Shown here one piece after another: positions 9,716-51,585 of a stretch of 64,000 bases of DNA. Origin of the DNA: Candidatus Thorarchaeota archaeon (GTDB lineage Archaea; Asgardarchaeota; Thorarchaeia; Thorarchaeales; Thorarchaeaceae); contig JBHLRZ010000001.1 in the NCBI GenBank assembly GCA_048882045.1, forward strand, positions 69,693 through 133,692. Direction: 5' to 3'. The notes under the pieces were generated by a model. It had not been told where the DNA came from. It searched no databases and worked only from the letters and a program-made list of their open reading frames with translations. A program made the position numbers and the translations under genes. Every line of letters starts with the position of its first letter. Positions within the stretch are counted from its first letter, which is position 1.

Positions 9716-10111
9716 ATGGGAAACAAGCTACAATTAGAGCCAGAAGCTACACCTTCAGTACTTTCCAATATCCCAAACACATTACAATCATTCCTCATGA
9801 ATTCAATCAGGAAAAAGACTCGTGAAAGAAAGACGGTTCTGGTGGCAAGTAATAGTCTGGCAAATCGGTTCATCTTGGAGCAGTGGGGAATAAGAGCATC
9901 TCAGAGGAGGAGATACAAGAACCTCTTTGCATCAGTGCGTCAACGATGCAGAGCAATGTTCCATAACTATCTCGCCCGTGGGAAAACAGAATGGGTTTCT
10001 GAAAGCAATAGGATAATCTTTGGTGTGTACAAGTTCGATGAGATAAGAGGGAATCTCATCTTGGCATTCGTGAAAGTTACATCTGAAACTGAGTGGTCAT
10101 TGCCAAGATGA
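9716..10111 (+). CDS. Hypothetical Arg-rich protein, doubtful
   Basis: 131-aa ORF convergent on the GTPase gene. No motif recognised; it may be non-coding. Confidence 0.25.
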   Translation: MGNKLQLEPEATPSVLSNIPNTLQSFLMNSIRKKTRERKTVLVASNSLANRFILEQWGIRASQRRRYKNLFASVRQRCRAMFHNYLARGKTEWVSESNRIIFGVYKFDEIRGNLILAFVKVTSETEWSLPR

Positions 10112-11002
10112 CTAAGCTTCACTCTCGATGCAAAGCAACTGTTCAACTGGCATATCAGGAACATCTATCTCAAAGAATTCAGATAATACTTGGACAAGTA
10201 TTTTGAGCAGATCCTCTCTGTAAGCCAAATCAATCGCCACCATTGCATGAGAAGATGACCCCATGACCTTGCTGATCGCTGTTGGATCTAGGGAATTGGG
10301 AGTGTCCTGTTTGTTAGCGAATATGACTATGGGCATCTCAGGATGCTCTTCCAGAATTTCGGAGAAGATTGTCTTTGAAGAGATGATATTCTTCAGGGTG
10401 GAGTCAGTTATTAGGAATATCATGTCTGTCAAAGAAAAGTCCCAGAGTTTACCAGCAGCCTCACGTCCCGCAAAGTCGAAAATCACTATATCGTAGTTTG
10501 CGAACTTCATGTCCCTAATGACTTCACAATTTACTGCGATTGTTGGAATATGAGTGTCTGGAGGTTCTATTCCCATCAGAAGATGAAGAAGTGAAGTCTT
10601 TCCGACTCCCAGATTTCCTACTAGAGCAATCACGAATTGAGATTGGACAAAACGCGCAATGATTTGTTCATAGTTCTCCTTTACATATTTCATTGTTTGT
10701 TTTTCCATGATTGAGCGAAGTGAAGTTGCGGCTCGATTTATCTTGCTGATTGTATCATCATCATTGGTGTCGTCATCAACTACAAAGATGATTATTCCTT
10801 TGCCACATTCTCGACTCACGAATTTGTATTCTCCGATAGTGACTGGCTTGTATTTTAAACGCTCAGATTTCTTGATTAACTTCTCAAGTTGTGACAGATA
10901 CTGCTTGATAATCTTCATCGGAATTGAATCCGCCCAATATTCTGATGATGCAATCTTGCGCCTGTTCTTTGCATTCAGCAAGATTGTGCTATATATCATC
11001 AC
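10112..11002 (-). CDS. Ras-superfamily small GTPase with N-terminal ~120-aa longin/roadblock-like extension
   Basis: G1 GNLGVGKTS, switch-I Thr (HIPTIAV), G3 DFAGRE (Ras-like DTAGQE with Gln to Arg), G4 NKQD. The N-terminal region is rich in beta-strands and helices (IIIFVVDDD...). Confidence 0.8.
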   Translation of the reverse strand: MMIYSTILLNAKNRRKIASSEYWADSIPMKIIKQYLSQLEKLIKKSERLKYKPVTIGEYKFVSRECGKGIIIFVVDDDTNDDDTISKINRAATSLRSIMEKQTMKYVKENYEQIIARFVQSQFVIALVGNLGVGKTSLLHLLMGIEPPDTHIPTIAVNCEVIRDMKFANYDIVIFDFAGREAAGKLWDFSLTDMIFLITDSTLKNIISSKTIFSEILEEHPEMPIVIFANKQDTPNSLDPTAISKVMGSSSHAMVAIDLAYREDLLKILVQVLSEFFEIDVPDMPVEQLLCIESEA

Positions 11003-11260: not shown

Positions 11261-12361
11261 TTACTCCTTGTGTTCTATAAATGACATTTCACCAACATAG
11301 CTGATGCCCATCATCTCTTTTACTCGTTCAGGTTCTTTCGTATGACCAAGAACCCATGCAAGCTTCACGAGTGCCGCTTCAGAAGTCATGTCATAGGCAC
11401 TCATAGCTCCAACCTCCAATGCAGCTCGTCCAACCTCATAGATGGACAGGTCTGCTTGACCAAATGCACACTGTGAACTGATCATGACGAAACACCCTTG
11501 ATCAATGGCTTGGAGGATTCCGCCTGTCAGGGCGTTCTCATCAGTAGGGACATTGCCAGATCCGAATCCCTCAATGATTATCCCATGGTAACCCAAGTCT
11601 ACAATCCGCGAAAGAATCTGGGGTGGCATACCCGGGAACACCTTGAGAAGAAACACGCGGTCATCAATACGTGTGTCAAACCGAGGTATTAGACCGTGGT
11701 CACGTTTCTTTCGACCTTCATAGAGGACAATATCACGTGCAAGCAGACCTAGAGGAGAAGGGTCCATTGAATCAAAGGCGTCGTACGAATTTACACGTAC
11801 CTTCTTGGCTCGAGTCGATCGATGAATCTCACCATTGAACACTATGCAGGTCTCGCCTAAGTCCCCGAAAGCAGCAACTCGAATAGCGTCTAGTAGATTC
11901 CTCGGACCATCACTCCATGGTACTGATGCGGGTATCTGAGACCCTGTGAACACAATTGGCCGGCCAAATTCTTGAACCATGAAACTGACTGCTGCTGCTG
12001 CGTACGTCATTGTGTCGGTCCCATGGGTGATAACGATACCAGTGAGGTCTTGGATCTCTTCATTCACCTCTTTAATGGTGCTCGCTAAATCTTGCCAGTG
12101 ATGTGGTTGTGCGTTTGCAGAATCCAGTTGGTAGAGCTCTTTCCAGACGACCTCGATATTGTCCATACCTTTAGGAAGGCGTTCGATGAGCTCCTCGATA
12201 GACAGTCCAGGGCGAAGTGCCCTTGTACCAGAGTCATAGACACTGGAGATTGTTCCTCCTGTAGTGATGATACAGACTTTGACATTATTTTCAGAGCTCA
12301 GTTTCACACACCTGTGTCCACGAGCTCTTGCTGATTTATCCGTGTTTTGCTTGAGTTTCAA
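11261..12361 (-). CDS. L-asparaginase, type I (archaeal)
   Basis: IITTGGTISS catalytic Thr motif, HGTDTM, and a C-terminal KLAWVLGHTKEPERVKEMMG motif like Pyrococcus asparaginase. Confidence 0.8.
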   Translation of the reverse strand: MKLKQNTDKSARARGHRCVKLSSENNVKVCIITTGGTISSVYDSGTRALRPGLSIEELIERLPKGMDNIEVVWKELYQLDSANAQPHHWQDLASTIKEVNEEIQDLTGIVITHGTDTMTYAAAAVSFMVQEFGRPIVFTGSQIPASVPWSDGPRNLLDAIRVAAFGDLGETCIVFNGEIHRSTRAKKVRVNSYDAFDSMDPSPLGLLARDIVLYEGRKKRDHGLIPRFDTRIDDRVFLLKVFPGMPPQILSRIVDLGYHGIIIEGFGSGNVPTDENALTGGILQAIDQGCFVMISSQCAFGQADLSIYEVGRAALEVGAMSAYDMTSEAALVKLAWVLGHTKEPERVKEMMGISYVGEMSFIEHKE

Positions 12362-13305
12362 TCGTTCTCTGTAGGTTTGATGACCACAGCAGAACCATCC
12401 CGACCAAGTTGGATTTTCATACCATCGCGAGCAAGTACGGAGTTAGGAAAAACCTTCCTTGCCTCCTCGATGATTTCATTCCCCTCAAAATATCGAGGAC
12501 TGTAATGAGTAAGTACGAGAAGATTGGTTCCAGCGTCACGAGCCAACTCTGCAGCATCTGTTGCTGTAGAATGACCTCTCTCGTCTGCAAGATTACTATG
12601 TTCGGTGGTGTACATTGCTTCACTGATCAGGATATCAGCATCAGTGGACGACTCTCGAAGTGCCTCGCAAGGGCGAGTGTCACCAGAGTATACAATCTTA
12701 ATTGACTTGGGACCAAGTTCTGTGACCATCTCTGGGGTGACAATGAAACCATTGTCTAGGACAATTGTTTTGCCTGATGCTAGTGATTTCCAAAGTGGAC
12801 CCTCTGGGACACCAAGCTCTTCAGCTTTAAGCGGAAGGAATTTTCCAGTCGGGCGGGACCATATGATTTCGTAGCCAAGTGCATACCCTCGATGCTCTAC
12901 CTCAAACGCACGCACTGTCAGGTGTTGTTCTTGGAAGATAACTCCTGGTCCAATCGAGCGGACTTCCGCCTCAAATGTTGTTCCCAGATTGATCGTAGAC
13001 TGATTGACCTTGACGTATTCAATGAGCTCCTCTGGACCAAAGATGAGCAAAGGTTTGATTCTACCAAGCAATGAGAAACGAAAGAGTAAGCCAGGCAGGC
13101 CAAGAACATGATCTGCATGAACATGACTGATGAAAATGGCCATCTTCTTGTTCAATCCTAGGCTAAGCTTTTCATACTGTCTTTGAACATCCTCGCCAGC
13201 ATCGAAAAGTAACACCCACCCTTCATATCGGATTGCAATGGATGGATGATTTCGACCTTTTGTGGGAATCGATCCACCTGTGCCAAGAAAGACAATTTCA
13301 ATCAT
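12358..13305 (-). CDS. rnz: Ribonuclease Z (tRNA 3'-processing endonuclease, metallo-beta-lactamase)
   Basis: IVFLGTGGSIP, HVHADHVLG (HxHxDH). Probable start at the internal Met of MIEIVFLG; the ORF track runs to 13362. Confidence 0.85.
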   Translation of the reverse strand: MIEIVFLGTGGSIPTKGRNHPSIAIRYEGWVLLFDAGEDVQRQYEKLSLGLNKKMAIFISHVHADHVLGLPGLLFRFSLLGRIKPLLIFGPEELIEYVKVNQSTINLGTTFEAEVRSIGPGVIFQEQHLTVRAFEVEHRGYALGYEIIWSRPTGKFLPLKAEELGVPEGPLWKSLASGKTIVLDNGFIVTPEMVTELGPKSIKIVYSGDTRPCEALRESSTDADILISEAMYTTEHSNLADERGHSTATDAAELARDAGTNLLVLTHYSPRYFEGNEIIEEARKVFPNSVLARDGMKIQLGRDGSAVVIKPTEND

Positions 13306-13362
13306 CAGACAGTCTTGTGAGGTTAGAAACTTGGACAAGATATGACTTGCGACTAATGGCAT

Positions 13363-14775
13363 TCAAGCTAAATCGAGAGGGATGTTCTTCGGAGAAGCCT
13401 CCCTTCGAACGACACTGTATGTATAAGCATCAAAGAACTTGGAAACATCCCACTTCCATTGGTCCTTTCTCCGATCATACAATGCAGCAACTTTTGATGT
13501 ACCACCTACTCCAGCAGCAACAACATGAGCTGAGTAGTCATGTATCTTTGATGTTTCATCGTTCAGGACATCAATCAGATTCTGTCCTGATCCAGCAGGT
13601 AGTGCAGAAACTAGCAACACTTTCTTTTCGGATGGATCTTCTAAGTTTTGAATCCGAGAGTGATACGTGAGAGGAAGATAATCCCATGCGGGAATAATGT
13701 CACCTGAACATTCTGGACTGAGCAGACAGATGACGCGGTCACTCAGAGCAGGGATGTTCACTCGAGCGCGAGGCAAAACAATTCCCTTCCTCAAGAGTTG
13801 AGTTCGTTTCCGAAACGCTGTTGAAGATGACAGTTTGGTAGCCTTAACAATGTCCGCAGCTGTCCCCCCATAATTGTCGACCAATGCGTCTATTATCTTC
13901 ACATCAGCGTATGTAAATCCATGAGGCTTTGGAGGAATAGCAGGGGCAACATCCGCCAAGACAAGGGGATTGCCTCCTTTCCTCAACATTAGCCGGAAAT
14001 GGAGAAGGTCAAGATTCCATCCTCTGTTTGGACTAAAGTAACGACCATTCAACTGCGGTCTTCCTGCGGAGAGCCCCCACACAGACACACTTCCTGTGCT
14101 GTTACGGAAACTCTTGATTGTGTCCAAGAATTCCTGTCGCTTGTCGTGGGGGATTGTTGCCACTACAAGTACTAATGGAGAATATCCATCAATCATCAAG
14201 GTCTTCTGAACATAGGGTCCAGACAGAACTAAAGTTGGGTTTTCGAACATGATTAGAACCCTTTCTAGTCCCAGTTTGTGTGTATTGAGCATCCCGCCAG
14301 TTTTCAAGACCTCTGAATCATTCAACCGCTTGTACGCACGACGTGTCTGACCATAGGATAGTCTTGCACGTTCAGCAATGACATTCAAGGACTCTCCAGG
14401 GTTCTTGATTGCAGCCTCAAGATATGGGAGCTCTGTTCTTGAAAGGACAGAGATGTTTTCCTCCCACAGGTCTACAATCAGACTCATGACATCGCGTTGA
14501 CTGATTATCGTTACATCACCAAGCTTGACAACTTCCTCTAGACGACGAGTAAGAAGAAGATAAAGACTGCCTCGATATGAGAGGACTATCTTCCTCAAAA
14601 GCTTGAAGTCTGCATCCTCTGTAAAGACCTCAAGTTGACCTCCCTCTTCAAAAGTCCTGACAAAACGTAAGACAGCCATTGCACTCGGGGATAGTTTCTC
14701 CCAGAATTTTGGAGTGTCGCTATCAGACATTATCGTTTCATCCTGACCATCCTGTACCAAATCTGGCTCAGTCAT
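13363..14775 (-). CDS. Multi-wHTH transcriptional regulator (Lrp/AsnC-like HTH repeats), hypothetical
   Basis: At least two HTH segments (NVIAERARLSYGQTRRAYKRL; AADIVKATKLSSSTAFRKRTQLLRKGIV), 470 aa. Confidence 0.5.
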   Translation of the reverse strand: MTEPDLVQDGQDETIMSDSDTPKFWEKLSPSAMAVLRFVRTFEEGGQLEVFTEDADFKLLRKIVLSYRGSLYLLLTRRLEEVVKLGDVTIISQRDVMSLIVDLWEENISVLSRTELPYLEAAIKNPGESLNVIAERARLSYGQTRRAYKRLNDSEVLKTGGMLNTHKLGLERVLIMFENPTLVLSGPYVQKTLMIDGYSPLVLVVATIPHDKRQEFLDTIKSFRNSTGSVSVWGLSAGRPQLNGRYFSPNRGWNLDLLHFRLMLRKGGNPLVLADVAPAIPPKPHGFTYADVKIIDALVDNYGGTAADIVKATKLSSSTAFRKRTQLLRKGIVLPRARVNIPALSDRVICLLSPECSGDIIPAWDYLPLTYHSRIQNLEDPSEKKVLLVSALPAGSGQNLIDVLNDETSKIHDYSAHVVAAGVGGTSKVAALYDRRKDQWKWDVSKFFDAYTYSVVRREASPKNIPLDLA

Positions 14776-20600: not shown

Positions 20601-21263
20601 GTGAACCATCGCCTGAAAAATCTCGTTGTTGTGGTTCTGACATTCGTCATCACATTATCAGGCGGACTTCTTACAGAGTATGCAAGACAGTCAATGGTCT
20701 TTTCTTGGGCTATTAATGTCGGAAACGAGTTTGTCTATGATGTCACAGTCATTGGCAACCGAACAACAACGTCACAAGTTCTTCCACCCCCTTTTGAACC
20801 AATGAACAACACACGGATTATTGTTGAAATCACTTCACTTCCGAATCTGACTTTGATGTACTATTCCTTTATCTTTGTTCAAGAGGTCGTGAATTTTCTG
20901 AAGACATCCTCTCAGTTCGAGAATAGATCTCCCATTCCTCCTGAGCTGTACAACACAATAAACTCGCATGTGTCTATGAGCATGCTTCCCATCGGAGCAT
21001 GGGGTCATCTGGACTCACTATTTCCAGACCAGACTAATATCGAACTCTCCGACCACGAGTCATTCATCTCTCGATATGACAATGGCGTCTTCTTCTTTGG
21101 ACATTGGGAGAACCAAACAGGACCAAGACCAGAAGTGAATGAATGGCATGGAATCTATGATATTGAAACTGGAGTTCCTAGTCTTATTACCATCTCTGTA
21201 ATTTCAAGAGGAGCTCTTGTTTCTGATATCTATACTATTACGATGACCTTGGTCAGCCAATAA
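20601..21263 (+). CDS. Hypothetical secreted/membrane-anchored protein
   Basis: N-terminal TM/signal (LVVVVLTFVITLSGGLL), several N-x-T/S sequons, no recognised motif. Confidence 0.4.
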   Translation: MNHRLKNLVVVVLTFVITLSGGLLTEYARQSMVFSWAINVGNEFVYDVTVIGNRTTTSQVLPPPFEPMNNTRIIVEITSLPNLTLMYYSFIFVQEVVNFLKTSSQFENRSPIPPELYNTINSHVSMSMLPIGAWGHLDSLFPDQTNIELSDHESFISRYDNGVFFFGHWENQTGPRPEVNEWHGIYDIETGVPSLITISVISRGALVSDIYTITMTLVSQ

Positions 21264-21315
21264 TACCAATGACATTCGAGTATGACTTAAACAGGAAAAT
21301 GTACCAATACTGGAT

Positions 21316-21909
21316 ATGGAGCCGACAGTTTATCACATACAAAAAGGCCGCCTCGTGAAGATGAAAGATCCAGGTGCTTTCGGTCGTGGCGACTGCTATC
21401 TCGTAGATGCAGGCATGAAGATCTATCTATGGATTGGTCCAAACTCTAGTGTTGACGAGAAGTTCCTCACTGCTGCTTCTGCAGTCATGAGAGACACCGC
21501 GCGAGAAGGCAAAGCTGACATCGATAGAATCGAGGGAGGAAATGAGCCAGAAGAGTTCAAGGCACTCTTTGATGACTTCAGTCTTACTGATGAAGACACA
21601 GAGGGCATTCTCAAGAAGGTTCAGTTAGAAACACGTGAACACAAACTTTGGCGCGTGCATCGTGAGGCGGATGAAACATTCTTCAAAGAGGTTGATCTTG
21701 ACAGAGCTTCACTGAAGAGTGACGACGTCTTCATACTCGACACGTTTGACGACATCTATGTTTGGCGAGGTAAGGATGCCACTGCACGAGAGAAGTTTGA
21801 TGCAACCATCCTTGCAAGGAGATATGATGCAGAACGTGTGGGGGTTCAGGAAATCGAACTGATTGAGGAAGGAAGCGAACCAGACGAGTTCTTCAAATCT
21901 TTCCCATGA
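21316..21909 (+). CDS. Two-domain gelsolin (2DGel-type actin-regulating protein)
   Basis: Two gelsolin-like repeats (DCYLVDAG-KIYLWIGPNSS...EF and DVFILDTFDDIYVWRGKDA...EF), 197 aa. Matches the Asgard gelsolin architecture. Confidence 0.8.
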   Translation: MEPTVYHIQKGRLVKMKDPGAFGRGDCYLVDAGMKIYLWIGPNSSVDEKFLTAASAVMRDTAREGKADIDRIEGGNEPEEFKALFDDFSLTDEDTEGILKKVQLETREHKLWRVHREADETFFKEVDLDRASLKSDDVFILDTFDDIYVWRGKDATAREKFDATILARRYDAERVGVQEIELIEEGSEPDEFFKSFP

Positions 21910-21910
21910 A

Positions 21911-23353
21911 TTATACTAACCTGTAGTGACCCGGACGAGGTTCATAGAGGACTCCACTGTCCTTCATCCGAGTCAGGGTCTCTGCAGCAACATGACGTTC
22001 GACTCCAGCCTCCTGAGTAATCTCATCTAGAGTGGGACCTAGAGATCCCTTCTTTCCGGTGTCGAGGGTTCTTATTGCTTTCAATACCTTTGTATTGAAC
22101 CTATCAAACCTGCTGCCCTTGCCCCAGTCCGTCTCTACTCCTTCTTTTAGTTCTGTGAGTTCGATGAACTCCTTTAATGCAGGTTCTAGGATTCGATTCC
22201 ATGAGGTCTTGAGGTCCTTGGCAGTGACCTTGTCTTTCCAAAATGCTCTTGCGGTTGATCGAGCCAATCTGAGTGCACTCAAGGGTCGCCCCAGTGCGTC
22301 TGCATCAAGGAGGCTGCCCCGTGCCATTACACCCTCCTCAAGACCAAAGCTCTCCCTTAGTGTATCCAAGCGTGAGAGGACATATTCAGTCCCTGAATCG
22401 ATTGTACGCTTCGAAACCTCTGGTGTGAGTAGTTGGAATGTTATGGCCGATTTCAAGATAGGTAGTCGTAGTTCCGATGGATTTCCAGTTTCAACCCAGA
22501 AGTCTTCTGATGCAAGTGCGATTGGTACATCAGGAAGTGAAGCTGTCTGTGACCCTGTGAGTGTTCCCATAGAAACCTCTCTGAATCCTGATGGGTCTAT
22601 TCGATAGACACACAACTGTTCCATCCTCTTCTTCGAGTAGGATCCGATGTCAAAACGTAAGAGCTTGGGAGCCTTGACTCTAACACTCCGAATGCTTCTG
22701 AATGCTGAAGGTCGTCCCTTCATAGAGGGAGGGAGGACATTTCTAATAAAGGACAAAAAACGTCGCACCTTTGTTTGAGATGCAATAGCCTGGATTCCTG
22801 TTGTAAGTCCCCCAATGCTATCCTCATATGGAGGACTTGAAACGAAGAGACGTGCGAACACCCTTTTGCTTGCTTCAGCCATACCTACATGCTCAAAGAG
22901 AAGATTGGAGATATCCTTCAGGGAGGAGGGAGGCTGAATGTTTGTAAGAAAGTCGATGGAGAGAGGCTCGTAGGAATCTGCAGCGATTGCACGTGTGATT
23001 GTTTGAGAACTCATGAGAGGTTCAGGTGCAACAACTCTCTTCCCAGTCACTTCAATGAAAGCACCATCAGGTGGAAGTGGTTTATCTTCTGGGAATAGAA
23101 TGAACTCACCCTCAAGAAGCCACTGACTGGGGGTGAGCAGTATCATCGACTTGTCCCTTGTGTGATGGACAAATCCACTGTATCGATATAGCTGTCTTGA
23201 AACTCGCTCGCTGAAGTCCTGTAGCAAGCGTGACTCCCATTGTGTGAGTTCGGTTCCAAACTGCCTGCTGTAGAGGTCACTCACACTGACTGCGTCTGCG
23301 AGTCTATCGTGCTTAGAGCCTAATCTTTCAAACAGGTCCTCATACACATCCAT
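21911..23353 (-). CDS. Hypothetical 480-aa protein with C-terminal wHTH; candidate partner of adjacent DNA methyltransferase
   Basis: No recognisable catalytic motif. C-terminal TLDEITQEAGVERHVAAETLTRMKDSGVLY resembles a wHTH. Its stop abuts the methyltransferase start (23353/23354). Confidence 0.45.
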   Translation of the reverse strand: MDVYEDLFERLGSKHDRLADAVSVSDLYSRQFGTELTQWESRLLQDFSERVSRQLYRYSGFVHHTRDKSMILLTPSQWLLEGEFILFPEDKPLPPDGAFIEVTGKRVVAPEPLMSSQTITRAIAADSYEPLSIDFLTNIQPPSSLKDISNLLFEHVGMAEASKRVFARLFVSSPPYEDSIGGLTTGIQAIASQTKVRRFLSFIRNVLPPSMKGRPSAFRSIRSVRVKAPKLLRFDIGSYSKKRMEQLCVYRIDPSGFREVSMGTLTGSQTASLPDVPIALASEDFWVETGNPSELRLPILKSAITFQLLTPEVSKRTIDSGTEYVLSRLDTLRESFGLEEGVMARGSLLDADALGRPLSALRLARSTARAFWKDKVTAKDLKTSWNRILEPALKEFIELTELKEGVETDWGKGSRFDRFNTKVLKAIRTLDTGKKGSLGPTLDEITQEAGVERHVAAETLTRMKDSGVLYEPRPGHYRLV

Positions 23354-24325
23354 CTAACTTTCACCCTCCCTTCGTAGATATTCACGATATGCTTTTGGAT
23401 AAAGTTCGGAGAGTTCCTCAATAGTTGGCAACCGTTCACTATATGGAATGTATGACTGACCAAGCTCAACCTTCGATATTTCGTCTTCAAGTAGAGGTCT
23501 GAGCTGTTCATTAGTTTCAAATCCAATGAAGTGTCTGAAGTTGGCTTTTGCAGCAACCGCAGTAGTACCATTTCCCATGAATGGATCTAGAATGATTTCA
23601 CCTGGTTTTGACGAGAAGTCCACGCATCTTGAAACTACCGCGAGAGGAAGTGTCGTTGCGTTCTTGGTCTGACCAGTACGGTACTTTCGCTTGAACAACC
23701 AAACGTCTTCTGGATAGTTCTCAATCTTATTGAAGAAGTACTTTTTCGGGTTCTTGACGAAAACTAGGATATGGTAGTGGCTGGAAACGAATCGTTTCTT
23801 CGTATATACTCCGAAGGGATAGTGCCAAATCAGATGGTTGAGTGTGACTAATCCAGCTTTACGAGCACCACTCAAAACAGATTCGAGATTGGTCCAACCA
23901 CTGAATACGTAGGCTGTTGATGTTGGTTTCATTATACGAGGAAGTTCTGCAAGCCATGCATCAGTGAATGCATGATACTCTTTCACTTCTTCATATCCTG
24001 TAACAACTAGGTTCTCATCCCGGTTATACACACTGCTCTTCCCATCAAAGTCAATTCCAAAGGGTGGATCCGCAATGACAAGATCGATAGAACGGGGAGG
24101 CAGTTTTTTCATTCCTTGAACACAGTCTTCGTATAGGATTGTGTCTAGATCCATACCCTCAAGGAACTCAGTCTTTGCAAACAGCTTCGATGCCTGATTA
24201 TGACTCCAGTCATAGGTAGGTCTGAAATAGAACTCTGCAAGATTTGGTATATACCGTTTGCTTTGTTCCTTATCTGATTGGACTTTTTTAGACGGAGTCA
24301 TGTGTGAGTTCACAGTCAGATGCAT
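23354..24325 (-). CDS. DNA methyltransferase, beta class (N4-cytosine or N6-adenine)
   Basis: Motif IV DLVIADPPFG precedes motif I FMGNGTTAVAA, the beta-group order. 323 aa. Confidence 0.8.
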   Translation of the reverse strand: MHLTVNSHMTPSKKVQSDKEQSKRYIPNLAEFYFRPTYDWSHNQASKLFAKTEFLEGMDLDTILYEDCVQGMKKLPPRSIDLVIADPPFGIDFDGKSSVYNRDENLVVTGYEEVKEYHAFTDAWLAELPRIMKPTSTAYVFSGWTNLESVLSGARKAGLVTLNHLIWHYPFGVYTKKRFVSSHYHILVFVKNPKKYFFNKIENYPEDVWLFKRKYRTGQTKNATTLPLAVVSRCVDFSSKPGEIILDPFMGNGTTAVAAKANFRHFIGFETNEQLRPLLEDEISKVELGQSYIPYSERLPTIEELSELYPKAYREYLRREGES

Positions 24326-24371
24326 GATGGTTATTCTTAAGCCTAGTCATACTTTGAAGGACTAGCTTATT

Positions 24372-25469
24372 CTACATGAGGTCTGAGGGATCGACACCAC
24401 GAGACATTGCACGTTGTGTCATCCAGGCTAGCTGATTCGTAGGTTGCTCTGGTTTGTTTGGAGTTTCAACCCGCTTAATCTTGAGTGCGTCTTCAGGACA
24501 TACGACTGCACAGACCCCACATCCAATGCATCGCTTAGGATCTACAACACAGATATCTTCAGGCACACTGAGTGCTCCAAACTGACAGCGATCAATACAG
24601 TTCTCGCATCCTGTGCAGAGGTCAGCATTTACAGTCATCAAGAAATCGGTTTTGATATATTCACGGGGCTCAGCGACCTTATCTACTCCTCTGAGTACAC
24701 CGCAGCAACACGTGCAGCAGTTGCAGATGAATGTATGACCAGACTGTACGTTGTATGTGCAATGAATTAATCCTGCGTCTTCAGCTTCTTTGAGAAGTCT
24801 GAGTGATTCCTCTTTCGTGATGGGTTTTGTGAGAGGGTCGTTATCAAATGCATTCTCCTTGTTTGGAGCAAATGGGAGACAGACCGATAGCGGATAATCA
24901 CAACCTTCGTCAATGAGTGTTTTCTGTTTTCTACAGATACACTCACGAACTCCCCAAGAAGCGGCAGACTCGATTAATTGTTCGGCCTGTTGAAAACTGT
25001 GAATCTCGAGCTCTGTACTCACAGCCTGATTGACTGGTATCACCTGAAAGATGACTGGCTCACTCGTTGTGATCTTCTTGAATCCAGTGACATTTTGAAA
25101 ATACTGTTCTAGGATTTGAGCGAACTCTGCGTCCATCCGGCCCAGTTGTTCCTCATAGATGCCAACTGCAAAAGGCAACAGACCATATTTCCTAGCTCCC
25201 GCACTCTTTGACATCCAAGAGCTGATCTGACCCTTCTCGTGCATTGTTTCTAGAAGTGATTCTAGCTCTTCCTTTGAGCGATTCAATCGCATACTTACTT
25301 CATCTATAGTTTCACCAGTAAGCTTCAGTTGACTAGCAAGCTCAGCCTCTTCTGGTTCGAATATCCACTCGAGTAACTTAAGATGTGAACCATCATCAAC
25401 TGGTGGAAATCCATTCGGAATAGTATCGAGAACTTGAGCAAGTCTTTCGTATGGATTCATAGCAATCAC
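24372..25469 (-). CDS. 4Fe-4S dicluster-domain protein with additional Cys-rich region, hypothetical
   Basis: C-terminal CTGCENCIDRC...CIGCGVCAVVCP ferredoxin motifs, plus an upstream ECICRKQ...CNCCTCCCG cluster. Confidence 0.5.
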   Translation of the reverse strand: MIAMNPYERLAQVLDTIPNGFPPVDDGSHLKLLEWIFEPEEAELASQLKLTGETIDEVSMRLNRSKEELESLLETMHEKGQISSWMSKSAGARKYGLLPFAVGIYEEQLGRMDAEFAQILEQYFQNVTGFKKITTSEPVIFQVIPVNQAVSTELEIHSFQQAEQLIESAASWGVRECICRKQKTLIDEGCDYPLSVCLPFAPNKENAFDNDPLTKPITKEESLRLLKEAEDAGLIHCTYNVQSGHTFICNCCTCCCGVLRGVDKVAEPREYIKTDFLMTVNADLCTGCENCIDRCQFGALSVPEDICVVDPKRCIGCGVCAVVCPEDALKIKRVETPNKPEQPTNQLAWMTQRAMSRGVDPSDLM

Positions 25470-25510
25470 AACTAAGTTTTCCTATGCAGAGCTATACATA
25501 ACACTTCTGT

Positions 25511-26854
25511 TTATTCAGGACAATTCAGTGTGATGCCCAATGGGCTAAGCTCCTCATTCACTTTCGACGTTATGACCTCACAATCTTGTCCTTTTCCAAT
25601 CAGGATATGAGTAAGTGACTGTTGAAATGGAGGAAGGAATGGCAGATTACTTGCTTCTAGGATTGAGTTATAGGCTTCTTTGACCTTGGGTACTTTGAGA
25701 TAATTCTCTAGCTCAGTAAGACTCGTCTTTGTGTCAAGGAGCATCTGACTAATCTTCTTTAGAAATGCAGGTTTTGGCACATTGACTGATGGACCAAAAA
25801 GTCCTTCAACATTCTCTTCAAACCAATTTTGCATCCGATCTATATCATAGACTGGTAAGACAATAGGAGATTCGCCCTCTGTTTCGGGAGCGATAATTCT
25901 AATCATCCCGCGTTTTTCTGCTGACAGTACGAAGTCTGAGAATCTTCTATACCCTAGTTTTTCAGTTTCAAGACCAAGTTCACGGATAGTAATACCGATA
26001 TCCCTCAGTGTATATGGCCTGCCCTCGTTGAGTCCGTCTTCTGCTACTTTAGCGAGAAATGCAAAAGCTTCATTGACCTCCTCTGATATCTTAACTGATT
26101 GCGGTGGAAGTTTCAATGGGAGCACCAGAATGGTTGCAGGGAGGTCTCCTTCAAGTTTGACATATCCTTGTGCTTCCGACCATTCGAGGAAGTCATGCCA
26201 ATGGTCAAAGCCCATCTCCTTCTCACTAAATTCTGGGTTTAGTGATGTCATAACATGTTTTGCATGTCCCACACCAGGTTTACTCCCAGTCTTTGCAATC
26301 AGTCTGATGACTTCTTGTAGTTGAACTGCAGCAAGATGTCGCAACTGAACAATGCTTTGGACAGACTCTTCGCAGTCCTCTGGGTGAACACAATCCAATG
26401 CTGGTCGGAATGAAAAGATATCACTGTAAATTGTGGCCAAATCAGGTAGTTCTGATGCAGTGATGATAGGATTACTGATGAGCCACAGTTCGACTCCATG
26501 CTCTTTGAGAGCTCCTGCAATAAGCTTGAAGTCACCATCGCCTGTAATCATCACGTATCTAGTGGTTTCTGGATAGTGCTTCAGATGATCCAGAATATAT
26601 GCAGCCATCTTGTAATCGCTTGCATTGTCTTTGACATCAGGTACATGAATCAGGTCATATCCGATAGAGTATAGTTCCTCAGCCATCTGCCTTCGCAAGT
26701 CCCAATCAGCAAATGCATACATCTTGACGATAGTCCCAGCCTGTCGAATGTGATTGGTCATAGAAAGATGTGTTGCTGACTCATCAGAAACATTCTCGAC
26801 ATCCCAAAAGACAGCCATGTGTTGAGGGGTCTCCGTGGAGGTCATGTTACTCAC
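25511..26854 (-). CDS. NYN-domain ribonuclease with OST-HTH/LOTUS domains (MARF1-like architecture)
   Basis: N-terminal VFWDVENV and ITGDGDF (NYN/LabA signature), followed by two or three ~70-aa helical modules with LOTUS-like GYRRFSDFV motifs. Confidence 0.6.
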   Translation of the reverse strand: MSNMTSTETPQHMAVFWDVENVSDESATHLSMTNHIRQAGTIVKMYAFADWDLRRQMAEELYSIGYDLIHVPDVKDNASDYKMAAYILDHLKHYPETTRYVMITGDGDFKLIAGALKEHGVELWLISNPIITASELPDLATIYSDIFSFRPALDCVHPEDCEESVQSIVQLRHLAAVQLQEVIRLIAKTGSKPGVGHAKHVMTSLNPEFSEKEMGFDHWHDFLEWSEAQGYVKLEGDLPATILVLPLKLPPQSVKISEEVNEAFAFLAKVAEDGLNEGRPYTLRDIGITIRELGLETEKLGYRRFSDFVLSAEKRGMIRIIAPETEGESPIVLPVYDIDRMQNWFEENVEGLFGPSVNVPKPAFLKKISQMLLDTKTSLTELENYLKVPKVKEAYNSILEASNLPFLPPFQQSLTHILIGKGQDCEVITSKVNEELSPLGITLNCPE

Positions 26855-37294: not shown

Positions 37295-38434
37295 CTAGAT
37301 ACAGCGGTGTATCACTTCGGGTCCTACTTCCTCGAACTCCTTCTTGGACACCCACATCTTCTGGAATGTCTTGAGTGAGCCGAGAATGCTTCCACCAATC
37401 CAGACAGAGTACTGCCTCTCGGGTGGAGCGATGATTCGGACCTCGATGTTCTCTGGGACTAGCTCGGTGATCTCCTTGTGGAGTCTCTCCTTGAGTCCTG
37501 GGAACATGGTTGAACCGCCTGAGAGCACAATGTTGGCGTATAGGTCACGTCTCAGGTCAACGTCACAAGCCTTGATTGACTCGACAATGTGGTCATCGAG
37601 TGGCATGGTGTCTAGACCAATGCCGCTTGGGTTGAAGAACAGCTCGGGTGCCTGGAACCTCTCTGCACCAATTGTGATTACCTCACCATCTGGTAACATG
37701 TAGGGCTTGTCAACACCTGCCTTGTCGGCAACTGTCCTTTCCCTCTCGGGATCAAGAGCAACGTAACATAGCTTCTCTTTGATATCTCTGACAATCTCTT
37801 TTTCTGCACCGCTTACAAATGAGTAGCCAGCCTGCCTGAGCAGTCTGCGCAGATACTCGGTGATGTCCCTACCAGCAAGGTCAATTCTTCGAATGGCGTG
37901 GTTGATTGAAAAGCCCTCATAGATTGGTACTATGTGGGTAACACCGTCGCCTGAGTCAATGACCAGACCAGTGGTCCTTCCGGATGCGTACAATGAGAGT
38001 ACGGCCTGCGTGGCAACGTACACTGCTGGTACACCAAAGTTGTCGAACATGACAGATGCCATGCGCTCTCTGTTTTCTCTAGGGTTGAATGGGGCTTCCG
38101 TAAGAAGAACTGGATTCTCGCTAGGATCTACCTTCAAGTCGTTGTAGAATGTGTAGCTCCAAATCTTCTCGATAGCGTCCCAGTCTTCCACCTTACCATG
38201 AGCGATTGGGTAGACCAGACGGAGTACACCACGAAGGTTGATTGCCTCTTCACCAATGTAGTAGTCACGTGTATAGTGATCCACGTCGGTCATGATTGAC
38301 TCGTAACGTGGGTAACCAATCAGTGTGGGCCAAACGCTGCGTGGCTGATCTTCGCCGGCGTAACCGTTCTTGCTCAAACCTGTACCATTGTCGATGACAA
38401 TGGGTTTTGCGCCAAGAAACTCGTCTTCAGCCAT
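37295..38434 (-). CDS. Actin (Asgard/eukaryote-like actin)
   Basis: [72 protein letters not shown]. Near-identity to eukaryotic actin signature blocks across 379 aa. Confidence 0.9.
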
Positions 38435-48092: not shown

Positions 48093-49376
48093 GTGTCATC
48101 TATCAATCACATGAAACCTGACATTCTCCTCACCAATATTGGACAGATTGCTACTCTGGAAGGCTATAGTGAGAAACCGAAAACAGGAGAAGAAATGAAT
48201 GAGGTTTCAATCATTGAAAATGGCGCCATAGCCATAAAGGATGGGAAGATAGTTGCGGTTGGAACCACGAAAGAAGTCCTCTCTGAGGTTTCAGAGGACC
48301 CCGATCTGCCAAGTATCGAGTTTCCCGAGATGCTTGCAGTTCCTGGATTCATTGACAGTCACACGCATTTGGTCTTTGGTGGTTCAAGAGAGAACGACTT
48401 TGCAATGAAACTGGCTGGGAAGACCTATCTGGAGATACTGGAGGCAGGCGGAGGAATCCTGAATACATTAAGATCGACTCGAGCAGCAAGTCTTGAGGAC
48501 TTGGTGAGTAATGGCTTTTCATATGCTGAGGGCATGCTGAGTATTGGAACTACTACACTAGAGGCAAAGAGTGGATATGGTTTAGATACAGAGAATGAGC
48601 TGAAGATGCTCAAGTCGGTTGAGAATCTTCGTGAGATGCTTCCAACCAATTTTGTATCAACATTCATGGGGGCACATGCAGTTCCTCCAGAGTACACAGG
48701 CAAGACCGAAGACTATGTAGATATCGTCATTAACGAAATGATTCCAGCAGTAGGAGAACAAGGATTTGCAGAGTACTGTGATGTGTTTTGTGAGAAGGGT
48801 GTCTTTGATATTGAACAGTCTCGTAGAGTCCTTCTTGCAGCAAAGAAGCACGGAATGAAACTCAAGGTCCATGCAGATGAGATTGTTCAACTGGGAGGAG
48901 CAAGTCTAGCAGCAGAGGTTGGTGCAGTGTCGGCGGATCATCTGCTTATGGCTTCTAATGAGGGTTTGGAGGACTTGCTCAAAGCAGGAACCATTGCAAC
49001 ATTGTTACCAGCAACAGCATTTAGTCTGGATACTGCATATGCAGACGCACGAATGATGATTGACTTGGGACTTCCATTGGCTTTGGCTACAGATTTCAAT
49101 CCAAACTGTGCAAATGAATCTCTATTCTTCACGATAGCACTGGCCTGTTACAAGATGAAGATGAAACCCAAAGAAGCACTGTCAGCAGTTACAATCAACG
49201 CTGCCCACGCACTTGACCGAGGACATACGCATGGCAGCATAGAGGTTGGTAAGAACGCCAACATCTTGGTCTTGGACTGTCCTAATCCAGAGTATCTAAC
49301 TTGGAGGTTTGGAGTTAATCTAGTACATACCGTGATTGTTAATGGCCAGGTTGTTCACACAAAGCTTGGACCCTGA
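48093..49376 (+). CDS. hutI: Imidazolonepropionase
   Basis: GFIDSHTHLVFGGSR amidohydrolase motif, 427 aa, hut gene neighbourhood. Confidence 0.85.
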   Translation: MSSINHMKPDILLTNIGQIATLEGYSEKPKTGEEMNEVSIIENGAIAIKDGKIVAVGTTKEVLSEVSEDPDLPSIEFPEMLAVPGFIDSHTHLVFGGSRENDFAMKLAGKTYLEILEAGGGILNTLRSTRAASLEDLVSNGFSYAEGMLSIGTTTLEAKSGYGLDTENELKMLKSVENLREMLPTNFVSTFMGAHAVPPEYTGKTEDYVDIVINEMIPAVGEQGFAEYCDVFCEKGVFDIEQSRRVLLAAKKHGMKLKVHADEIVQLGGASLAAEVGAVSADHLLMASNEGLEDLLKAGTIATLLPATAFSLDTAYADARMMIDLGLPLALATDFNPNCANESLFFTIALACYKMKMKPKEALSAVTINAAHALDRGHTHGSIEVGKNANILVLDCPNPEYLTWRFGVNLVHTVIVNGQVVHTKLGP

Positions 49377-49378
49377 TT

Positions 49379-50923
49379 CTAGACATCCAACAATGGACCA
49401 GTTATTTTCTCAGCAGAAGCTATCAACTTTCCTTGATTAATGAGAGCTCGAATCTTGTTGATATCAGGAGCCAGTGCTCGATCATCCTCAAGCATACTTA
49501 CTTCCTTTCGGAGGGCTGTTTTTGCTGCTTCAATTGGTTCTGATGCCTTCAGTGGGGCGAGAAGGTCAATCCCTTGGGCTGCACACATGTATTCAATGGC
49601 AATCACATTCCTGATATTTCCAAGAATGTTTGATGCTTTGCGTGCAGCGATTGTTCCCATGCTCACGTGGTCCTCTTGGTCTGCGCTAGTAGGGATAGAG
49701 TCAACACTTGCAGGATGAGCGAGTCCCTTGTTCTCTGAAACCAGTGCGGCTGCTGTGTACTGAGCAATCATCATTCCTGACTCAAGACCGCCCTCAGTGG
49801 TTAGAAATGCAGGAAGTCCGCTCAGGTGAGGATTCACGAGACGGTTTATTCTTCTCTCGGAGATGTTTGCAAGCTCAGCCAGAGCAATGCTCAAGAAATC
49901 CATTGCTAGTGCGATGGGTTGGCCATGAAAATTGCCACCTGAAACAACAGTGTTGTCATCAGAGAATACGAGTGGGTTGTCTGTTGCTGAATTGAGCTCG
50001 GTTTCGATGACACTCTGCACATATCTGATGGTGTCAAGTGTTGCTCCAATCACCTGGGGAATACAGCGTAGTGAATAAGCATCTTGAACTACACCACAGT
50101 CTGCATGGGACTTATTGATCTCACTGTCGGGAAGAAGAACCCTCATTGCCACTGCTACATCAGTCTGACCTTCGTGTGGACGAATTGTATGGATTCTCTC
50201 ATCAAAAGCAACACGAGTCCCACGTAACGCCTCCAGACTCATAGCTGCAGCGATCATTGCATCCTTCACAGTGTCGAACGCATCATAGACAGTGATAGCG
50301 CCAACTGAAGCCATGGGCTGGGTGCCATTGATGAGTGCCACACCTTCTTTGGCTTGAAGTTCTAGAGATCTGATTCCTGCTTTCTTCAGAGCTTTAGCCC
50401 CATCCATACGGTCTCCTTTGTAGACTGCTTCGCCCTCTCCAATCATAACGAGGGCCATATGAGCCAGAGGCGCCAGGTCACCACTAGATCCCACAGATCC
50501 CTGTTGTGGTACTACAGGTGTCACGTCCTTATTCAGCAGCTCAATCAGAGTAGAGATTACCTCTAGCCTGACACCAGAGTATCCTTTCGCAAGAGCATTT
50601 GCACGAAGGAGCATCATACCCCGGACTACTTCAACTGGAAAGGGATCTCCAACGCCAACACTGTGACTGCGTATCAGATTCACCTGAAGCTTTGCAAGGT
50701 CTACTGAACTGATACACACATCTGAGAGGTCTCCAAACCCAGTGTTGATTCCATAGACTACTTTTCCCTCTTTTATTGCGGCCTCAACTACCGCTCGACT
50801 GCTCTTGATTCGAGGGATTGTTGATTCATGCAAAAGAACTGGCTCATTGTATCGGGCAACCTGCACAACATCTTCTAGAGTGAGACTCTCACCATCAACC
50901 ATGACGGGCATTTTATCCACCAA
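49379..50923 (-). CDS. hutH: Histidine ammonia-lyase
   Basis: MIO-forming GSVGSSGDLAPLAHM motif, 514 aa. Confidence 0.9.
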   Translation of the reverse strand: MVDKMPVMVDGESLTLEDVVQVARYNEPVLLHESTIPRIKSSRAVVEAAIKEGKVVYGINTGFGDLSDVCISSVDLAKLQVNLIRSHSVGVGDPFPVEVVRGMMLLRANALAKGYSGVRLEVISTLIELLNKDVTPVVPQQGSVGSSGDLAPLAHMALVMIGEGEAVYKGDRMDGAKALKKAGIRSLELQAKEGVALINGTQPMASVGAITVYDAFDTVKDAMIAAAMSLEALRGTRVAFDERIHTIRPHEGQTDVAVAMRVLLPDSEINKSHADCGVVQDAYSLRCIPQVIGATLDTIRYVQSVIETELNSATDNPLVFSDDNTVVSGGNFHGQPIALAMDFLSIALAELANISERRINRLVNPHLSGLPAFLTTEGGLESGMMIAQYTAAALVSENKGLAHPASVDSIPTSADQEDHVSMGTIAARKASNILGNIRNVIAIEYMCAAQGIDLLAPLKASEPIEAAKTALRKEVSMLEDDRALAPDINKIRALINQGKLIASAEKITGPLLDV

Positions 50924-51021
50924 GGTCTAACATATACAGCAACTAGTGTGTACTAGTTACCGTCGAGAGTGATTCATAGAAGCTCGCTTTAGTAGTTATC
51001 GTTGAATTTTGTAAAAATACT

Positions 51022-51528
51022 CTATACTATTCGCTCTTCCCGAGGTCCTAGTTTTAATCCCGTATCAAGCATAAAGCTCTTGTTGCAATTCTGACAGACC
51101 ACTGATCCATCATCTTGAATGTTCTTCTCTGAATAAAGATAGTAAGCGTTACAGAATGGACACCCCGACCCCTTACGACCTGGGTATTTTCGACTAAGTT
51201 CCCAACCATGAAGTCTAGCAAGTTGCTCGATTTTCCTCAGAAATGTCGACTCTGCAGCAGCTTGTGAGCCAAAATCAATTCGAAGGAGACCCTCTCCACC
51301 ACCGCTAGAGAGTACAGTTATTTCACATTCGTTGATTTCTACGTAGTGCTGGACAATGATAGTAATAGTTTGCTCACTCATTGTTCGGAGTGCTAGCTCA
51401 GAACGGATGAAGACAGCATTAATCATTCCTCCGCATTCCCAGACCTTCTCAAGTTTGTCAGAGTAATCTTCACGTAATAATGATAGAAGAGAGTCTATCT
51501 CGATATTTCGAACTACGAGAGTGACCAC
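51022..51528 (-). CDS. Hypothetical protein with C-terminal zinc ribbon, embedded in hut cluster
   Basis: CPFCN...CQNCN, 168 aa. Confidence 0.4.
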   Translation of the reverse strand: MVTLVVRNIEIDSLLSLLREDYSDKLEKVWECGGMINAVFIRSELALRTMSEQTITIIVQHYVEINECEITVLSSGGGEGLLRIDFGSQAAAESTFLRKIEQLARLHGWELSRKYPGRKGSGCPFCNAYYLYSEKNIQDDGSVVCQNCNKSFMLDTGLKLGPREERIV

Positions 51529-51585
51529 TTTATTGTAATCCTCAAATTGAAATTGGATTGAATCAACTTAATCTTTAGCAAAGTA

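Follow-up and report, generated by a model that had tools for sequence, protein, structure and literature searches.

Two-domain gelsolins (2DGels) of Asgard archaea are calcium-regulated actin-binding proteins, and the gene studied here, at 21316..21909 (+) in a 64,000-nucleotide stretch of contig JBHLRZ010000001.1 (hereafter the window), encodes a close relative of them. Three proteins from Thorarchaeota (Thor), named 2DGel, 2DGel2, and 2DGel3, have been characterized, and they are 76-89% identical among themselves (PMC7444086; Akil et al. 2020, PNAS). The Thor 2DGels cut rabbit actin filaments when calcium is present at 0.3-1 mM, they show no activity in egtazic acid (EGTA), and 2DGel3 nucleates and severs filaments, after which the fragments bundle and anneal (PMC7444086). 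Furthermore, 2DGel and 2DGel3 have been crystallized on rabbit actin, with the first domain (D1) in the cleft between subdomains 1 and 3 and with conserved calcium sites; three calcium sites are common to Thor 2DGel and human gelsolin G1-G2, and the linker follows the same path as in the human protein, while the second domain (D2) is placed differently (PMC7444086). In human cells expressing Thor 2DGels, calcium triggered the loss of filamentous actin (PMC7444086). In addition, gelsolin-homology proteins of cultured Lokiarchaeum co-precipitate with native actin (2025 preprint).

The features of the 2DGel class have also been described. They include Type I and Type II calcium residues in both domains and a WG motif (PMC7444086, PMC9433394). 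Thor and Gerd 2DGels consist of two gelsolin domains only, the WH2-like motif between D1 and D2 reads Leu, basic, basic, Thr/Val, and the Type I ion of D1 is completed by actin Glu167 (PMC9433394).

Judged from its sequence, the window protein is by every testable criterion a straightforward ortholog of the 2DGels from Thorarchaeota. An earlier sequence-only reading of the window had placed it in the Asgard 2DGel class, and this placement agrees with our results: the protein is the ortholog of the crystallized 2DGel3 and 2DGel, and all testable class features are present. With a probability of about 0.93, we consider that the gene encodes a Thorarchaeota 2DGel that, by analogy with its orthologs, would work in the cytosol and regulate the actin of its own organism under the control of calcium. 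This kind of gelsolin is already known, since papers of 2020 and 2022 described its family, structures, calcium control, and evolutionary meaning.

Identity and orthologs of the gelsolin gene

The sequence search against PDB matched the window protein to 7c2h_G (2DGel3) with E = 5.5e-115 over residues 2-197 and to 7c2g_G with E = 2.7e-106. The next matches were eukaryotic gelsolins at about 1e-36, and then Heimdall and Loki 2DGels. In a gapless alignment with the native 2DGel3 of SMTZ1-45 (KXH70758.1), 169 of 196 residues (86%) were identical. The identity was 85% to the AB_25 gene (2DGel2, locus L025) and about 80% to 7C2G (2DGel).

Orthologs were scanned in one genome per species, and 45 loci were compared for their neighborhood. 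Orthologs at 77-90% identity were present in about 40 genomes, nearly all labeled Thorarchaeota, and among them were SMTZ1-45 (L020) and AB_25 (L025), in which the genes flanking the gelsolin are the same as in the window. Thus, full-length high identity is accompanied by a common neighborhood, as expected for an ortholog of the characterized Thor 2DGels. In addition, the upstream neighbor of the gelsolin is identical to a protein of the Thorarchaeota metagenome-assembled genome (MAG) GCA_048882745.1. Because almost all of the orthologs are from Thorarchaeota and the upstream neighbor has this identical counterpart, the window is Thorarchaeota chromosome. Together with the actin gene at 37295..38434, the identity to GCA_048882745.1 also shows that the gelsolin resides in an Asgard genome with a eukaryote-like actin.

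The exact sequence of 197 amino acids is already present in public assemblies. At 90% identity, the window gelsolin and the SMTZ1-45 protein fall into one cluster, which has 112 members, and those that carry a name are all called "hypothetical protein". These names can be explained by NCBIfam, in which no model for the gelsolin protein was found.

A partial gelsolin domain (44% identity) was also seen at a contig edge in L042 1..4783 (DATKTP010000022.1), which is filed under a bacterial MAG, "Candidatus Deferrimicrobium sp.". We rejected it as a bacterial gelsolin: by eye, the remaining genes would encode a type-2 methionine aminopeptidase, a protein resembling Roadblock/LC7, and an Asn/Asp-tRNA synthetase of archaeal type, and this is probably a mis-binned Asgard contig.

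Domain architecture and conserved residues

The sequence-only reading had described two tandem gelsolin repeats without additional domains. The hidden Markov model search that had been proposed as its check was run with Pfam PF00626 (Gelsolin) and was significant; the protein was matched in two stretches, of which the best was 124-192, with E = 5e-30 and 103.6 bits. The outcome that would have counted against the claim, a missing gelsolin hit, was not observed, and the score above the gathering cutoff of 21 bits places the protein in the gelsolin repeat superfamily. Furthermore, when the two halves of the protein were aligned to each other locally, the score was 100, compared with 27.6 +/- 5.4 (maximum 63) in 500 shuffles. 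Pfam found gelsolin-type families alone, as the only matches besides PF00626 were the overlapping gelsolin-like PF25480 and PF25466. The length of 197 amino acids leaves no room for a further domain, and the chain ends three residues past the last helix. Two domains without a C-terminal extension, as in Thor-type 2DGels, were thus found.

D1 lies at 21325..21567 (+) (about residues 4-84, with limits taken from the secondary structure of the model) and would be the part that binds the actin cleft. Its predicted Type II calcium residues are G25-D26 and E48, assigned from invariance in 41 sequences and alignment to gelsolin G1 and G2, and its predicted Type I residue is D60 (with G65 and A67). 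D1 also has the WxG motif W39-x-G41 and a terminal EPEEF (77-81). The inter-domain linker spans 21568..21642 (+), residues 85-109, and includes LKKV at 21610..21621 (+), residues 99-102, which agrees with the WH2-like actin-binding motif of Thor-type 2DGels. D2 lies at 21643..21897 (+) (about residues 110-194, from the Pfam stretch 124-192 and the model secondary structure), with the invariant Type II residues D137 and E159, the invariant Type I residue D171 (with G176), the WxG motif W150-x-G152, and a terminal EPDEF (188-192). Type I and Type II calcium residues were therefore found in both domains, as in Thor-type 2DGels. The spacing is identical in D1 and D2 (Glu-to-Asp 12, Glu-to-Gly 17), and gapless alignments to gelsolin G1/G2 put D26, E48, and D60 on ligand positions. 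The ligand identity of these residues follows the assignments in PMC9433394 and the numbering of human gelsolin.

The earlier claim that each repeat has a terminal EF segment agrees with the EPxEF sequences at 77-81 and 188-192. The proposed core motif LxDxG-x-IYxW(I/R)G survived only in part: its literal form is absent from both domains, and the looser IYxW[IR]G is present in both. In the D1 motif LVDAGMKIYLWIG (residues 29-41), G and IY are separated by two residues, not one. In the D2 motif ILDTFDDIYVWRG (residues 140-152), I replaces L and F replaces G.

Conservation was assessed in an alignment of the window protein and 40 orthologs extracted from the loci (41 Thorarchaeota sequences). 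Eighty of the 197 positions were invariant. D26, E48, D60, D137, E159, and D171 were invariant in 41/41 sequences, and in the linker L99 and V102 were invariant and K100/K101 were K or R in nearly all. The class-defining positions (Type I, Type II, WxG, and LKKV) were all invariant or conservatively substituted. Furthermore, the ratio of nonsynonymous to synonymous polymorphism (pN/pS) was 0.07-0.19 against 39 orthologs, with synonymous differences near saturation. Therefore, the gelsolin gene is functional and strongly constrained.

Fold model

AlphaFold2 was run on the single sequence, and the model was used for topology and fold retrieval, not for domain orientation. Its confidence was moderate (predicted local distance difference test, pLDDT, 61.8; predicted template modeling score, pTM, 0.43). 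The order of secondary structures followed the gelsolin pattern twice. In Foldseek, 7c2g_G and 7c2h_G were at the top (E = 2.7e-24), which are described there as the Thorarchaeota 2DGel/rabbit actin complex (7C2G) and the 2DGel3/rabbit actin complex (7C2H), and 50 of the 50 top matches were chains of the gelsolin family. After the Thor 2DGels came the Heim and Loki 2DGels, gelsolin G1-G3, CapG, adseverin, villin, and fragmin. The structure prediction suggested by the sequence-only reading thus recovered a gelsolin fold and not a different one. The protein is predicted to have the gelsolin-type alpha/beta fold, in which a central sheet packs against a long helix and a short one is added, and the support for this comes chiefly from the 86% identity to a crystal structure, not from the model.

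Gene start and upstream region

The coding sequence of this Thor 2DGel ortholog starts with ATG, encodes 197 amino acids, and ends with TGA. Between the preceding stop and the ATG there is no in-frame ATG, GTG, or TTG. The equivalent of the gene in the NCBI assembly GCA_048882745.1 (contig JBHLRH010000002.1) is L046 3755..4309, where the gelsolin is annotated with 184 amino acids; this call is 13 codons shorter and apparently starts at the GTG of V14. It omits the N-terminal segment EPTVYHIQKGRL. No ortholog fails to keep this segment, and the ordered part of the 2DGel3 crystal already begins at residue 2 (2-198). The ATG start that gives 197 amino acids is therefore the correct one.

The gelsolin gene is solitary. 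A gap of 52 bp separates it from the upstream gene, and its stop is 1 nt from that of the gene converging on it from downstream. A candidate archaeal TATA-like box, CTTAAAC, lies at 21286..21292 (+), 24-30 nt before the ATG, and similarly placed boxes occur in many orthologs. This element suggests that the gelsolin gene may have its own promoter, possibly with a leaderless or short-leader mRNA. When the 60 nt before the gelsolin start (21256..21315 in the window) were compared with those of 40 loci, two distinct upstream architectures appeared. In the first type, to which the window belongs, the box reads CTTAA[A/G] or TTTAAG and is located at about -30 to -24. The second type, found in a different group of orthologs, combines TTTATACA at about -45 with GGAG at about -12. 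The two architectures suggest that leaderless and leadered transcripts may be used in different Thorarchaeota lineages.

Actin gene of the window

The presumed physiological target of the gelsolin is the actin of 379 amino acids encoded at 37295..38434 (-) (Pfam Actin, E = 7.8e-132). Its best PDB match was 9wc4, "HC1 actin" (E = 6.7e-186), and eukaryotic actins followed at about 1e-158. The window actin retains PIYEGF, which contains the Glu167 equivalent, and the cleft segments LYASGRTTG and a further one of 13 residues. Because Glu167 and the cleft segments are retained, the gelsolin binding site is probably available on the cognate actin. An ORF (open reading frame) of 257 amino acids lies divergent from the actin gene at 38681..39454 (+), 246 bp away, and it has no match in Pfam or NCBIfam.

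Proposed mechanism and alternative explanations

Homology, architecture, conservation of the signature residues, purifying selection, and a compatible actin are established at this locus. By analogy with the orthologs, the Type I calcium ion, held by D60 and the backbone of G65 and A67, would be shared with actin Glu167, and further ions would occupy the Type II sites in D1 (G25-D26 and E48) and in D2 (D137 and E159). The WH2-like LKKV linker would run along actin. Since the binding site would overlap the actin-actin contacts, binding is expected to sever filaments and to cap or sequester actin. At some ratios, filaments might be nucleated, or the fragments might anneal and bundle. The protein would be inactive without calcium. 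From the characterized orthologs we infer its activity and the calcium range in which it works, how severing is balanced against bundling, how tightly it binds its own actin, and what it does in the cell.

Several points weigh against assigning the gene to a calcium-switched actin regulator of the Thor 2DGel type. First, the window protein departs from a strong family consensus, although at three sites only (A118, K124, and F144). Second, the model is only moderately confident (pLDDT 61.8), with a template modeling (TM) score of 0.43 against the crystal structures; this low TM can be attributed to the unreliable domain orientation in the model. Third, the biochemistry of Thor 2DGels was all done on rabbit actin, and the binding is weak, with a dissociation constant of 135 µM for monomeric G-actin (2DGel3; PMC7444086). 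Fourth, the three characterized orthologs behave differently despite their 76-89% identity (PMC7444086), and the activity balance of the window protein is not readable from sequence.

The last point leads to the alternative that survives best. The protein could have the same fold and actin site and yet serve in the cell mainly as a monomer sequesterer, a nucleator, or a bundler, that is, as a functional sub-variant of 2DGel. At 32 µM and 0.3 mM calcium, the outcome was bundling with 2DGel, severing with 2DGel2, and severing followed by annealing and bundling with 2DGel3, and 2DGel2 and 2DGel3 nucleate too; the authors ascribed these differences to substitutions at actin contacts (PMC7444086). 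The window protein has 27 substitutions relative to 2DGel3. However, 2DGel3 is its nearest relative and a potent severer, all of the calcium and WH2-like residues are kept, and the sequence carries no sign of a loss of severing. We therefore regard such a sub-variant as unlikely, while it keeps a real share of the probability.

A protein with the gelsolin fold that does not act on actin, such as a structural or adaptor module comparable to the gelsolin-like domain of Sec23/24, is highly improbable. The significant PDB matches by sequence and structure are all actin-binding members of the gelsolin family, with Sec23/24 among none of them, although the fold is known in proteins not known to bind actin and Sec23a was included in the alignment of PMC7444086. 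Similarly, the affinities for rabbit actin are weak, but orthologs co-crystallize with actin at the canonical site (PMC7444086). In addition, LKKV and the Type I residue that would pair with actin Glu167 are conserved, and Pfam did not find the Sec23 trunk and zinc-finger domains in the protein.

The idea of a eukaryotic contaminant, a recent horizontal acquisition, or a decaying pseudogene, for which one could cite that gelsolin is typically eukaryotic and that the bacterial-MAG contig L042 has a 44% partial match, is effectively refuted by synteny and selection, as the gene stands amid archaeal housekeeping genes in a block collinear over about 40 Thorarchaeota genomes, its upstream neighbor is identical to a Thorarchaeota MAG protein, its GC content is 47% against 45% for the window, L042 is most likely mis-binned and carries archaeal-type genes, and the ORF is intact with a pN/pS of about 0.1.

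Neighboring genes and linkage to actin

The upstream neighbor at 20601..21263 (+) encodes 220 amino acids, with an N-terminal hydrophobic segment and five NxS/T sequons. The Kyte-Doolittle mean exceeded 1.6 in 19-residue windows starting at residues 5-10, with a maximum of 2.1. The gene was present in 9 of the 45 loci, and the protein had no match in NCBIfam. It had been called a hypothetical secreted protein, which is plausible from the hydrophobic segment and the sequons; a membrane-anchored protein would also fit.

Downstream, a gene for a protein of 480 amino acids at 21911..23353 (-) is convergent on the gelsolin, and neither Pfam nor PADLOC gave a match. Of the 45 Thorarchaeota loci, 41 have this gene, with 51-81% identity. 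When 24 orthologs were combined into a profile, it matched only the C-terminal lid and winged helix of MCM (8x7t_D, E = 1.2e-4, positions 358-479), and NCBIfam gave a marginal MCM C-terminal match far below the cutoff (E = 0.0082); the N-terminal approximately 350 residues had no assignment. The next gene, at 23354..24325 (-), encodes a CcrM-like beta-class N6/N4 DNA methyltransferase (PADLOC Type II or orphan methyltransferase, E = 7.7e-50). It was positionally conserved in 29 loci and missing in at least six (L021, L027, L029, L031, L036, and L043), in which the flanking genes are adjacent. Thus, the methyltransferase behaves as a solitary, occasionally lost enzyme. The six loci without it still carry the gene for the 480-residue protein, and this protein is therefore unlikely to be the restriction partner of the methyltransferase. 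A 4Fe-4S protein and then an NYN-domain protein follow.

These downstream genes (21911..26854) had been described as a putative defense-like cluster. This description did not hold. PADLOC on seven neighbors found no defense system beyond the methyltransferase, with a marginal NYN match (E = 0.003) and no restriction enzyme. We also rejected a restriction-modification or defense system for this region, because the methyltransferase is alone and the block is positionally conserved: the order M20 peptidase, Fpg, 2DGel, 480-residue protein, methyltransferase, Fer4, and NYN is collinear in 23-41 of the 45 loci, unlike a mobile defense island.

The distance between gelsolin and actin had been given as about 16 kb, and we measured 15,979 bp from start to start and 15,385 bp from end to end (15.4-16.0 kb). 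Four loci of other Thorarchaeota lineages (L006, L013, L018, and L040) have an actin ortholog of 93-94% identity at a distance of 3.6-10 kb from the gelsolin, and its side and strand agree with those in the window. Within L006 262..5572, just the gene for the 480-residue protein, the methyltransferase gene, and two small ORFs stand between gelsolin and actin. Meanwhile, the 15.4-kb gap of the window holds extra genes, including those for a histidine kinase, an M20 peptidase, a phosphatase, GNAT, and DinB proteins. These distances were measured within 10-kb flanks, and larger gaps, the complete chromosome CP070761.1 included, fall outside this reach. The proximity of gelsolin and actin is inherited and not incidental, and the larger gap of the window is due to the extra intervening genes.

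This linkage may be mere conserved gene order, because gene order is kept throughout the region and more than one actin-related gene is encoded in Thor genomes, which have several. We find it very doubtful that the neighborhood from 2DGel through the 480-residue protein and the methyltransferase to actin is functionally coupled beyond its inherited order. If it were, the block might, for example, be what remains of an ancestral cytoskeletal cluster, or the 480-residue protein might regulate the Asgard actin system or be a partner in it. The sequence-only reading had also concluded that actin regulation is dispersed in this genome. This is right insofar as there is no cytoskeletal operon among the approximately 50 larger ORFs of the window, of which the actin and the gelsolin are the only cytoskeletal ones, and it is at odds with the proximity of gelsolin and actin conserved in at least four other lineages.

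Rest of the window

Pfam annotation of the approximately 50 larger ORFs gave SecY, ribosomal proteins, Cbf5, KEOPS subunits, an Arf-family GTPase, a histidine-utilization cluster, and prefoldin. The window is thus a stretch of ordinary Asgard chromosome. No other actin regulators were found by Pfam in these ORFs, with the ORFs at 11261..14775 and most of those below 120 amino acids left out. A profile of the 41 gelsolins found no second gelsolin domain in the six-frame translation of the window, where the next best match had E = 0.62. Two ORFs of profilin size, at 9716..10111 and 43405..43824, had no match in Pfam and none to solved profilins, in searches by phmmer and Pfam that can miss divergent Asgard profilins.

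A small GTPase of the Arf family is encoded at 10112..11002 (-). Pfam Arf covers its residues 121-250 (E = 1e-15), and the stretch of about 120 residues that precedes them has no match. It is an Asgard eukaryotic-signature protein, and an Arf GTPase co-precipitated with Lokiactin (2025 preprint). The ORF at 42395..43408 (+) encodes a predicted beta-propeller of 337 amino acids, whose matches to FG-GAP and to the BBS7/BBS2 propeller families of the BBSome are short and weak (E of about 4e-8 to 4e-6). The histidine-utilization cluster at 48093..53607 includes an imidazolonepropionase-like amidohydrolase, a histidine ammonia-lyase (Lyase_aromatic, E = 1e-203), and a urocanase.

Comparison with known systems

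Among the known systems, 2DGel3 (KXH70758.1, 7C2H) is the closest: it has two domains, LKKV, all of the calcium residues, and the same gene neighborhood (L020) as the window protein. The two proteins differ in length (198 versus 197 amino acids) and at the 27 substituted positions, such as F144 for W, K124 for A, and A118 for G. At position 144, 2DGel3 and most orthologs have W, whereas the window protein has F. In architecture, calcium sites, and synteny, 2DGel (SMTZ1-83, 7C2G) and 2DGel2 (AB_25, L025) are also the same as the window protein. However, the linker of 2DGel is LRRV instead of LKKV, and the activities of these two differ, as 2DGel bundles and 2DGel2 purely severs (PMC7444086).

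The 2DGels of Heimdallarchaeota and Lokiarchaeota (7WHF and 7WHG) share the two-domain core, the Type I/II sites, and the WH2-like linker with the window protein, and they show calcium-dependent severing, capping, and sequestering (PMC9433394). Their identity to the window protein is only 27-32%. They have a C-terminal Tail or a Link and Zn domain and extra calcium sites, whereas the window protein ends after D2; because it has no sequence past D2, an extended Loki/Heim-type 2DGel was rejected. The linker motif is LKHV in Heim, LVDV in Loki, and FKHV in human gelsolin, compared with LKKV in the window.

Eukaryotic gelsolin, CapG, adseverin, villin, fragmin, and severin have the fold, the positions of calcium ligands, the linker, and the actin cleft in common with the window protein, at 22-27% identity in Foldseek alignments. 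They contain three or six domains, with an added headpiece in villin, whereas the window protein contains two. As it has only two repeats and the window encodes no further gelsolin domain, the eukaryotic gelsolin/villin/CapG type was rejected. By sequence, its domains best fit gelsolin G2-G3 (horse residues 156-334), and structurally D1 behaves like G1 (PMC7444086). The Asgard proteins ProGel and 1DGelX have the same core fold and actin surface as 2DGel (PMC7444086). Unlike the window protein, they have one domain, lack calcium sites, and are calcium-independent; the gelsolin profile found neither of them in the six-frame translation of the window.

The two-domain gelsolins of Asgard archaea show that calcium-regulated actin disassembly predates eukaryotes, as was established in 2020-2022 by crystal structures and assays of proteins that are 80-86% identical to the one described here. 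To these, the present locus adds another ortholog, a point of annotation (no NCBIfam model, cluster members named only as hypothetical proteins, and a short NCBI call), and a loose linkage of gelsolin and actin across Thorarchaeota.

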